In this document: positions 17,339 through 17,922 of the stretch, one piece after another
Numbering within the stretch: position 1 is the first letter of the stretch
Layout: each line of letters begins with the position of its first letter
Assembly (NCBI RefSeq): GCF_016026235.1
Contig: NZ_CP065613.1
Length of the DNA stretch: 64,000 bases
DNA from: Escherichia coli
Lineage (GTDB): Bacteria; Pseudomonadota; Gammaproteobacteria; Enterobacterales; Enterobacteriaceae
Direction: 5' to 3' (one strand)
Translations under genes and position numbers: made by a program
Notes under the pieces: generated by a model
What the model was told of the DNA's origin: nothing
Databases searched by the model: none
The model's input: only the letters and a program-made list of their open reading frames with translations

Positions 17339-17644
17339 TTAAGGATGAGGCTGAATTTCTTCAGGTCGGTATTTTGTTGAGAGATGAGAGATGTCAACTT
17401 CTCTCTCTGCTTTTTCAAGACTCCATGCCATCTGAAGACGAATCCATGAGGCCGGAGTTCCTCCAAGAACGGCGGCGAGACGAACAGCCATTTCAGGAGA
17501 GATTGCCGCATTTCCTGAAACCAGTCGCTGAACAGTGGAAGGCGCAACATCAAGCGCTCTTGCCAGCTCTCTGATCCCAATATTCTGATCTTCCAGAATA
17601 TCCGCAATAATTTCTCCTGGATGAGGGGGGTTAAACATCGTCAT
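17339..17644 (-). CDS. higA: HigA-family antitoxin (HTH)
   Basis: MFNPPHPGEIIADILEDQNIGIRELARALDVAPSTVQRLVSGNAAISPEMAVRLAAVLGG... is the HigA antidote pattern; start overlaps higB stop (TAATG). Confidence 0.7.
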   Translation of the reverse strand: MTMFNPPHPGEIIADILEDQNIGIRELARALDVAPSTVQRLVSGNAAISPEMAVRLAAVLGGTPASWIRLQMAWSLEKAEREVDISHLSTKYRPEEIQPHP

Positions 17645-17922
17645 TAATGGTAATCCTCGTAGTTAAGAATATAAGCGTCACCGTCACGAAACTCGAAGGT
17701 GATCCTCCAGTTACCGGAGACGGAGACAGACCACGTATCGGCCCTGTCTCCTTGCAACTGGTGCAGCCTGTAACCGGCAAGGTTAATATCATCAATGATT
17801 TCGGCTTGATCTATCACCTGAAGGCGCATTCTAAGGCGTTTAACATGATTGGGATTTACGCCTGATGCACTTCCAGTTTCAAAGAAACGTTGAAGTCCTT
17901 TGTGTTTCCAGCTTTTTATCAT
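17644..17922 (-). CDS. higB: HigB-like toxin (RelE/ParE superfamily, 'plasmid maintenance killer' type)
   Basis: 92-aa product from MIKSWKHKGLQRFF... ending ...NWRITFEFRDGDAYILNYEDYH; AGGAAA RBS; toxin-first order typical of hig loci. Confidence 0.65.
   Translation of the reverse strand: MIKSWKHKGLQRFFETGSASGVNPNHVKRLRMRLQVIDQAEIIDDINLAGYRLHQLQGDRADTWSVSVSGNWRITFEFRDGDAYILNYEDYH

Follow-up and report, generated by a model that had tools for sequence, protein, structure and literature searches.

The HigB/HigA toxin–antitoxin (TA) pair of Rts1 (Proteus vulgaris; PDB 4mct/4mcx and 4ypb) is a module of IncT plasmids in which the toxin gene comes first and overlaps the antitoxin gene in the string TAATG. 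The YgjN/YgjM pair of Escherichia coli K-12 also bears the name HigBA, and we take it to be a toxin-first module of the RelE superfamily. The same description applies to HigBA2 of Vibrio cholerae (PMC5416850). For HigB, mutagenesis and ribosome-bound structures demonstrated that His54, Asp90, Tyr91, and His92 are essential for mRNA cleavage and that Arg73 contributes to it (PMC5027501). The Rts1 HigA operators are two inverted repeats lying over the -35 and -10 boxes (PMC12266136). Here, a pair of this type, higBA, was analyzed in a 64,000-nucleotide stretch of E. coli DNA (contig NZ_CP065613.1 of assembly GCF_016026235.1; called the window below), which represents a lambdoid prophage in the E. 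coli chromosome. Judged from sequence comparisons, the pair very probably (roughly 0.9) constitutes a self-contained type II TA operon belonging to the canonical HigB/HigA family of Rts1 and forms a moron within the prophage's nin region. Its Rts1 relative has a conjugative plasmid as the carrier, whereas the window pair resides in a chromosomal lambdoid prophage.

Both genes lie on the minus strand. The higB gene (17644–17922) encodes a protein of 92 amino acids, beginning with MIKSWKHKG and ending with AYILNYEDYH, which by family assignment would be a RelE/ParE-fold, ribosome-dependent mRNA endonuclease toxin. The higA gene (17339–17644) encodes an XRE/HTH_3 antitoxin of 101 amino acids, presumed to be an autorepressor. 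As in Rts1, the order is toxin-first, higB lying 5' of higA, and the TAA stop codon of higB and the ATG of higA share the A at 17644 within TAATG. The coordinates, the 92-residue toxin, its ILNYEDYH terminus, and the one-base overlap given in the earlier note on this DNA agreed exactly with the listing of open reading frames (ORFs) and with the sequence. In the six-frame list, the higB ORF spans 17644–17952 on the minus strand, and its internal ATG at 17922 yields the 92-residue product. The start at 17952, which would give a toxin of 102 residues, was rejected because that ATG lies within the predicted -10 hexamer and because the homologues, the PDB sequences, and the annotations of the NCBI Prokaryotic Genome Annotation Pipeline (PGAP) all begin at MIKS. 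A Shine–Dalgarno sequence, AGGA (17930–17933, minus strand), was read from the sequence 7 nt 5' of the ATG at 17922 and was unchanged in all five aligned promoter regions.

The predicted toxin matched Pfam PF05015 (HigB-like_toxin) with an E-value of 3.3e-21 over model positions 1–91 of 91, and PHROG 3066 ('toxin of TA system') with 2.2e-36. Its residues 1–92 aligned without a gap to residues 2–93 of the solved Rts1 HigB (PDB 4mct_B; 1.2e-30), 54 of the 92 positions being identical (59%). H54, N71, R73, D90, Y91, and H92 of Rts1 HigB were all kept at the same positions in this alignment. The K-12 HigBA and V. cholerae HigBA2 proteins were absent from the PDB sequence matches of the window toxin and are therefore regarded as more distant subfamilies. 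Thus, the earlier description of a HigB-like toxin of the RelE/ParE fold was borne out by full-length profile matches and by a solved HigB. By its sequence, the window HigB is an Rts1-subfamily toxin with the complete catalytic set, and its activity is predicted.

The antitoxin scored 89.1 bits (1.3e-25) against the NCBIfam model TIGR02607 (antidote_HigA, 'HigA family addiction module antitoxin'), the curated cut-off of which is 47.7 bits, and contained an HTH_3 domain (1.4e-9). Its best structural relative was the HigA of E. coli CFT073 (PDB 2icp/2ict), a different allele (2icp: 7e-28, 51% identity over 89 residues). The window HigA is thus nearer to this chromosomal protein than to Rts1 HigA (4mcx_A: 6e-20, 41% identity), and these matches bear out its earlier assignment as a HigA-type helix-turn-helix (HTH) antitoxin. 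The earlier note had proposed a search with HigB/HigA and RelE/ParE profiles and had named a lack of significant hits as one outcome that would speak against the pair; strong matches were obtained for both proteins. Their family membership was supported by four independent libraries in addition to solved structures. The adjacency of the two genes, their co-conservation, and similar selection on both suggest that HigA may bind and neutralize its cognate HigB.

The closest relatives of the whole cassette were found in the Shiga toxin (Stx) phage GER2 and in about 21 E. coli prophages (e.g., JNEC-KY204), where it is annotated by PGAP and is approximately 88% identical at the nucleotide level over the cassette and its flanks. 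GER2 HigB is 92.4% identical in amino acids to the window HigB. There, too, the promoter and the candidate operators match, and the cassette is antisense to the early genes and lies beside the isrK/C4-ORF6N antirepressor module. In contrast to the window, the left neighbour is an antirepressor gene or a hypothetical ORF and not ninE, the 3' hairpin is different, and in KY204 the cassette is placed upstream of ninB instead of after ninE. Compared with this GER2/KY204 lineage (90–92% identical), the ratio of nonsynonymous to synonymous substitution rates (dN/dS; Nei–Gojobori) was 0.08–0.095 for higB and 0.11 for higA, with dS of about 0.35. Ratios of around 0.1 indicate that both proteins are under purifying selection.

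The limits of the element were set by comparison with the E. coli N47 prophage, in which the homologous nin region has about 9 bp in place of the insert and ninE is directly beside the isrK/C4 leader. Homology between the window and N47 extends to ~17309 and picks up again at ~17985–18001; the insert, located by BLAST and alignment, therefore covers approximately 680 bp (17306–17985, minus strand). It comprises a 3' GC-rich hairpin, the two genes, a leader with the Shine–Dalgarno sequence, and a sigma-70-like promoter. Having its own promoter and 3' hairpin, and missing from N47 with the flanking homology intact, the cassette qualifies as a phage moron. The suggestion that the pair is cargo and not part of the lambda core thus held, since the cassette is lacking in an otherwise homologous E. 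coli prophage. The GC profile revealed no foreign compositional signature, values over the cassette and flanks ranging from 45% to 51%. Similar short strings were seen at the two insert junctions, GGTGCTCGACAA at the left (~17300–17312) and GGTTTGACAA at the right (~17981–17992), and the single junction of the cassette-free N47 prophage reads GGTGATTGAC. These strings may represent microhomology through which recombination brought in or removed the cassette.

The predicted promoter of the operon, Phig (TTGCGA-16-TATAAT; 17951–17978, minus strand), was found in a consensus scan with 10 of 12 matching positions and is followed, within the insert, by the 22-nt leader that carries the Shine–Dalgarno sequence and precedes higB. 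Its -10 box was invariant, and the -35 box was TTGCGA, or TTGCGC in the other lineage. Two imperfect inverted repeats are candidate HigA operators. O1 (GTTGTG-TCATT-CGCAAC; 17963–17979) overlaps the -35 box, and O2 (GTTGCG-TTACG-CGAATC; 17934–17950) lies over the -10/+1 region, between the -10 box and the Shine–Dalgarno sequence. Their centres are 29 bp apart, and a pattern search located the motif nowhere else in the 64 kb, the pattern having been derived post hoc from the sites themselves and so carrying no independent test. O2 was 100% conserved between the two lineages despite a coding dS of ~0.35, and the sequence reaching from the -10 box up to the ATG differed between them by a single substitution; the arms of O1 were conserved as well, its 5-nt centre and the spacer being variable. 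This layout resembles that of Rts1, where two inverted-repeat sites with a spacing of ~30 bp cover the -35 and -10 boxes; in the Rts1-type Phig, read from an IncT plasmid, these are two 21-bp inverted repeats 30 bp apart. The half-sites differ, being GTTGYG/CGMAWC in the window and TATTACAC/GTGTAATA in Rts1. Since the architecture matches but the half-site sequence does not, we infer by analogy that O1 and O2 may serve as the operators for HigA autorepression.

At the other end of the operon, a GC-rich hairpin (CCCCGCC-CTGAAC-GGCGGGG; 17311–17331, minus strand) lies 8 nt past the stop codon of higA. Its folding energy is -19.1 kcal/mol (z = -3.1) and its U-tract is weak; it was not called in the terminator scan and is replaced at the same place by a different GC-rich hairpin in the other lineage (KY204/GER2/PA2). 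It is probably the 3' end or a stabilizer of the higBA transcript. A second, terminator-like hairpin was noticed inside higA on the antisense plus strand (17386–17405), composed of GAGAGATGTCAACTTCTCTC followed by TCTGCTTTTT. It could attenuate non-antiterminated read-through from the early-right promoter PR over the cassette, or be there by chance. Four terminator-like sites were found in the region versus 1.4 expected.

The neighbouring genes, ordered on the basis of PHROG and Pfam assignments, place the pair within the nin region and antisense to phage early-right transcription, as had been proposed. The CI repressor gene (11816–12550) is on the minus strand. On one side, the lambdoid genes O (13250–14188), P (14185–14886), ninB (16132–16599), the gene for a Dam-type methylase (16592–17122), and ninE (17119–17295) are all on the plus strand. 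On the other, also on the plus strand, are the genes for an Ant-like ORF6N/P22AR antirepressor (18259–18945), RusA (20037–20399), Q (20581–21099), and the endolysin (21650–22147). A further ORF6N/ANT antirepressor gene at 19271–20040 (plus strand) is split into overlapping ORFs, 19271–19687 and 19621–20040, by a single-base deletion at ~19602 relative to three otherwise identical loci with an intact 256-residue protein. The deletion may be genuine, which would make the gene a frameshift pseudogene, or it may be a sequencing error. The chromosomal flank at 59000–64000 (yadE-yadG-yadH-can-yadI) is 100% identical to that of E. coli FDAARGOS_943, which has no prophage there.

The pair had also been credited with its own upstream region. 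This applies to ~60 bp (17923–17985) that are part of higBA; the remainder of the 336-bp gap (17987–18258) is a leader of the antirepressor gene on the opposite strand. Treating the whole gap upstream of higB as TA regulatory DNA was rejected, as a higBA-free prophage shares the conserved segment 17987–18258, in which the Rfam families isrK, C4, and c4-a1b1 were recognized on the plus strand. A sigma-70-like promoter of this leader (TTGACA-18-TATATT; 17987–18016) is followed by c4-a1b1 (18010–18061; 45.3 bits, just below the gathering threshold of 46.7), the isrK small RNA (18023–18096; 68.3 bits versus 50) with a terminator stem at 18076–18091 and a T-run, and the C4 antisense RNA (18123–18207; 68.7 bits versus 45), all on the plus strand. 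The segment 17987–18258 is thus the known P1 immI/Gifsy-type leader of antirepressor genes, divergent from higBA. The isrK terminator stem varied between lineages, with both arms changed.

Both proteins have already been named in NCBI nr, which holds the exact HigB as 'MULTISPECIES: type II toxin-antitoxin system RelE/ParE family toxin' and the exact HigA as 'HigA family addiction module antitoxin'. The exact HigB was present in 74 blocks of the assembly collection, and it was situated between ninE and the P22AR gene in 8 of 8 loci among the matches listed. The prophages carrying the identical protein pair differ in their replication (O/P or primase–helicase), immunity, and Q modules. Among 5426 complete E. 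coli genomes, higB of this family was detected in 21 (~0.4%; 91.8–92.5% nucleotide identity), and none of the 5426 contained the identical higBA allele of the window. Among 50,697 phage records, such a HigB was encoded only by the Stx phage GER2 and in five Mannheimia phage records; plasmid homologues were at most 70% identical.

The higA gene of this family was found in 67 of the 5426 genomes, 46 of them without higB. Orphan higA copies with ~90% nucleotide identity occur in phage PA2 (4002–5162), in many Stx1a/Stx2a phages, and in O157:H7 genomes. These loci keep just 22 nt of the 3' end of higB and have a 93-residue lipoprotein-like ORF and a ParD/ribbon-helix-helix-like ORF in place of higB and Phig. 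The orphan HigA of an Stx phage is 93% identical to the window HigA. The orphan gene possibly represents an anti-addiction or a remnant state.

The data taken together identify the higBA pair as real, intact-looking, and already annotated, an ordinary prophage cargo of a known kind that belongs to the best-characterized HigBA subfamily. Inferred from Rts1, Phig would drive constitutive transcription of the operon in the lysogen, running antisense to the repressed PR operon and not depending on it. HigA, as a dimer, would bind HigB as well as the two inverted repeats at -35 and -10/+1, leading to autorepression. When the supply of HigA is halted by prophage loss, by a shut-off of host transcription or translation, or by proteolysis, free HigB would accumulate, enter the ribosomal A site, and cut mRNA at A-rich codons, with growth arrest as the predicted consequence.

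Several observations weigh against this picture. Near the mRNA path a single position is changed, K57 of Rts1 HigB being Q in the window protein; K57 touches the mRNA via its backbone, and basic residues, K57 included, proved non-essential when substituted singly (PMC5027501). No NCBIfam model matched the toxin in the NCBIfam search, and it hit none of the families in PADLOC-DB 2.0, hence it is not among the defence-system effectors catalogued there. The two sites themselves served to define the operator motif post hoc, and the sequence of the motif is unlike that of the Rts1 operators. Toxicity, neutralization, the lability of HigA, and operator binding are for this pair predictions drawn from relatives. 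It is also debatable how much an addiction module benefits an integrated prophage, such elements being lost far less often than plasmids.

As to the role of the cassette, we rank addiction or competition first, followed by abortive-infection defence, neutral hitch-hiking, and coupling to phage circuits. A selfish addiction/competition module, penalizing the loss or replacement of the prophage segment, is the most likely role, at about even odds. The presence of higA without higB in 46 of the 67 genomes fits an anti-addiction/competition logic.

A role in abortive infection, suggested by the earlier note beside prophage stabilization, is the chief alternative but on balance rather unlikely. According to this explanation, host transcription would stop once a phage infects, HigA, being labile, would decay, and mRNA cleavage by HigB would abort the infection. 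In the lysogen a promoter of its own would serve the cassette, which occupies a variable moron slot, and the PHROGs category of the family is 'moron, auxiliary metabolic gene and host takeover'. Phage defence has been reported for TA systems, among them HigB-type toxins of toxin–antitoxin–chaperone (TAC) systems (bioRxiv 10.1101/2024.02.24.581848). However, the lack of any PADLOC-DB match for HigB means that no defence role is documented there, and HigA gave weak generic HTH matches only (E of at least 3e-4). A literature search for the cassette in lambdoid nin regions, or for abortive infection by prophage HigBA, returned generic mentions only, with no report of defence for this HigBA subfamily. 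The rarity of the cassette (21 of 5426 genomes) argues in the same direction.

Still less probable is that higBA hitch-hikes as a neutral selfish element or is a remnant in decay, kept because the toxin cannot be lost first, bringing no benefit to phage or host and possibly encoding an attenuated HigB. The loss of higB with retention of higA in many Stx phages and O157 genomes implies that the toxin is dispensable and often purged. Nevertheless, both ORFs are intact in the window with the full catalytic set, the promoter and the Shine–Dalgarno sequence are conserved, and the dN/dS of higB indicates continued selection on the toxin protein.

A last explanation couples higBA to the lysis–lysogeny or induction circuitry, by PR read-through or by HigA bound at O1. 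The operon is convergent with the early-right operon, so N-antiterminated PR transcription passing head-on through higBA upon induction could silence Phig and free HigB in lytic growth. The -35 boxes of Phig and of the isrK-leader promoter, two promoters arranged back to back, are separated by 8 bp. From O1, which lies 8 bp upstream of the -35 box in the divergent isrK/C4 promoter, bound HigA could alter expression of the antirepressor operon. We consider this coupling very improbable: the evidence is purely positional, and although higBA or higA stood beside the isrK/C4-Ant module in all four contexts seen, the same antirepressor leader occurs in N47 in the absence of higBA, and PA2-type phages have higA ~700 bp from the isrK/C4 promoter with the operators gone, so that the co-occurrence is attributed to common ancestry. 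A wider reading, in which the orphan higA genes of Stx phages moreover act as anti-addiction genes against this toxin, is rated just as improbable.

Beyond correct annotation, the importance of the locus as a predicted addiction/competition module is small, its exact proteins being named in NCBI already. It does place the founding plasmid-type (Rts1) HigBA subfamily, as a rare moron, at a single, recurring position in lambdoid and Stx prophages. If O1-bound HigA did act next to the isrK/C4 promoter, expression of the antirepressor might become tied to the TA state. Should the toxin prove active, the stability of the prophage or the persistence and defence phenotypes of the lysogen may be affected. 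The Stx phages that have lost the toxin and kept the antitoxin offer a natural data set for ideas on addiction and anti-addiction.
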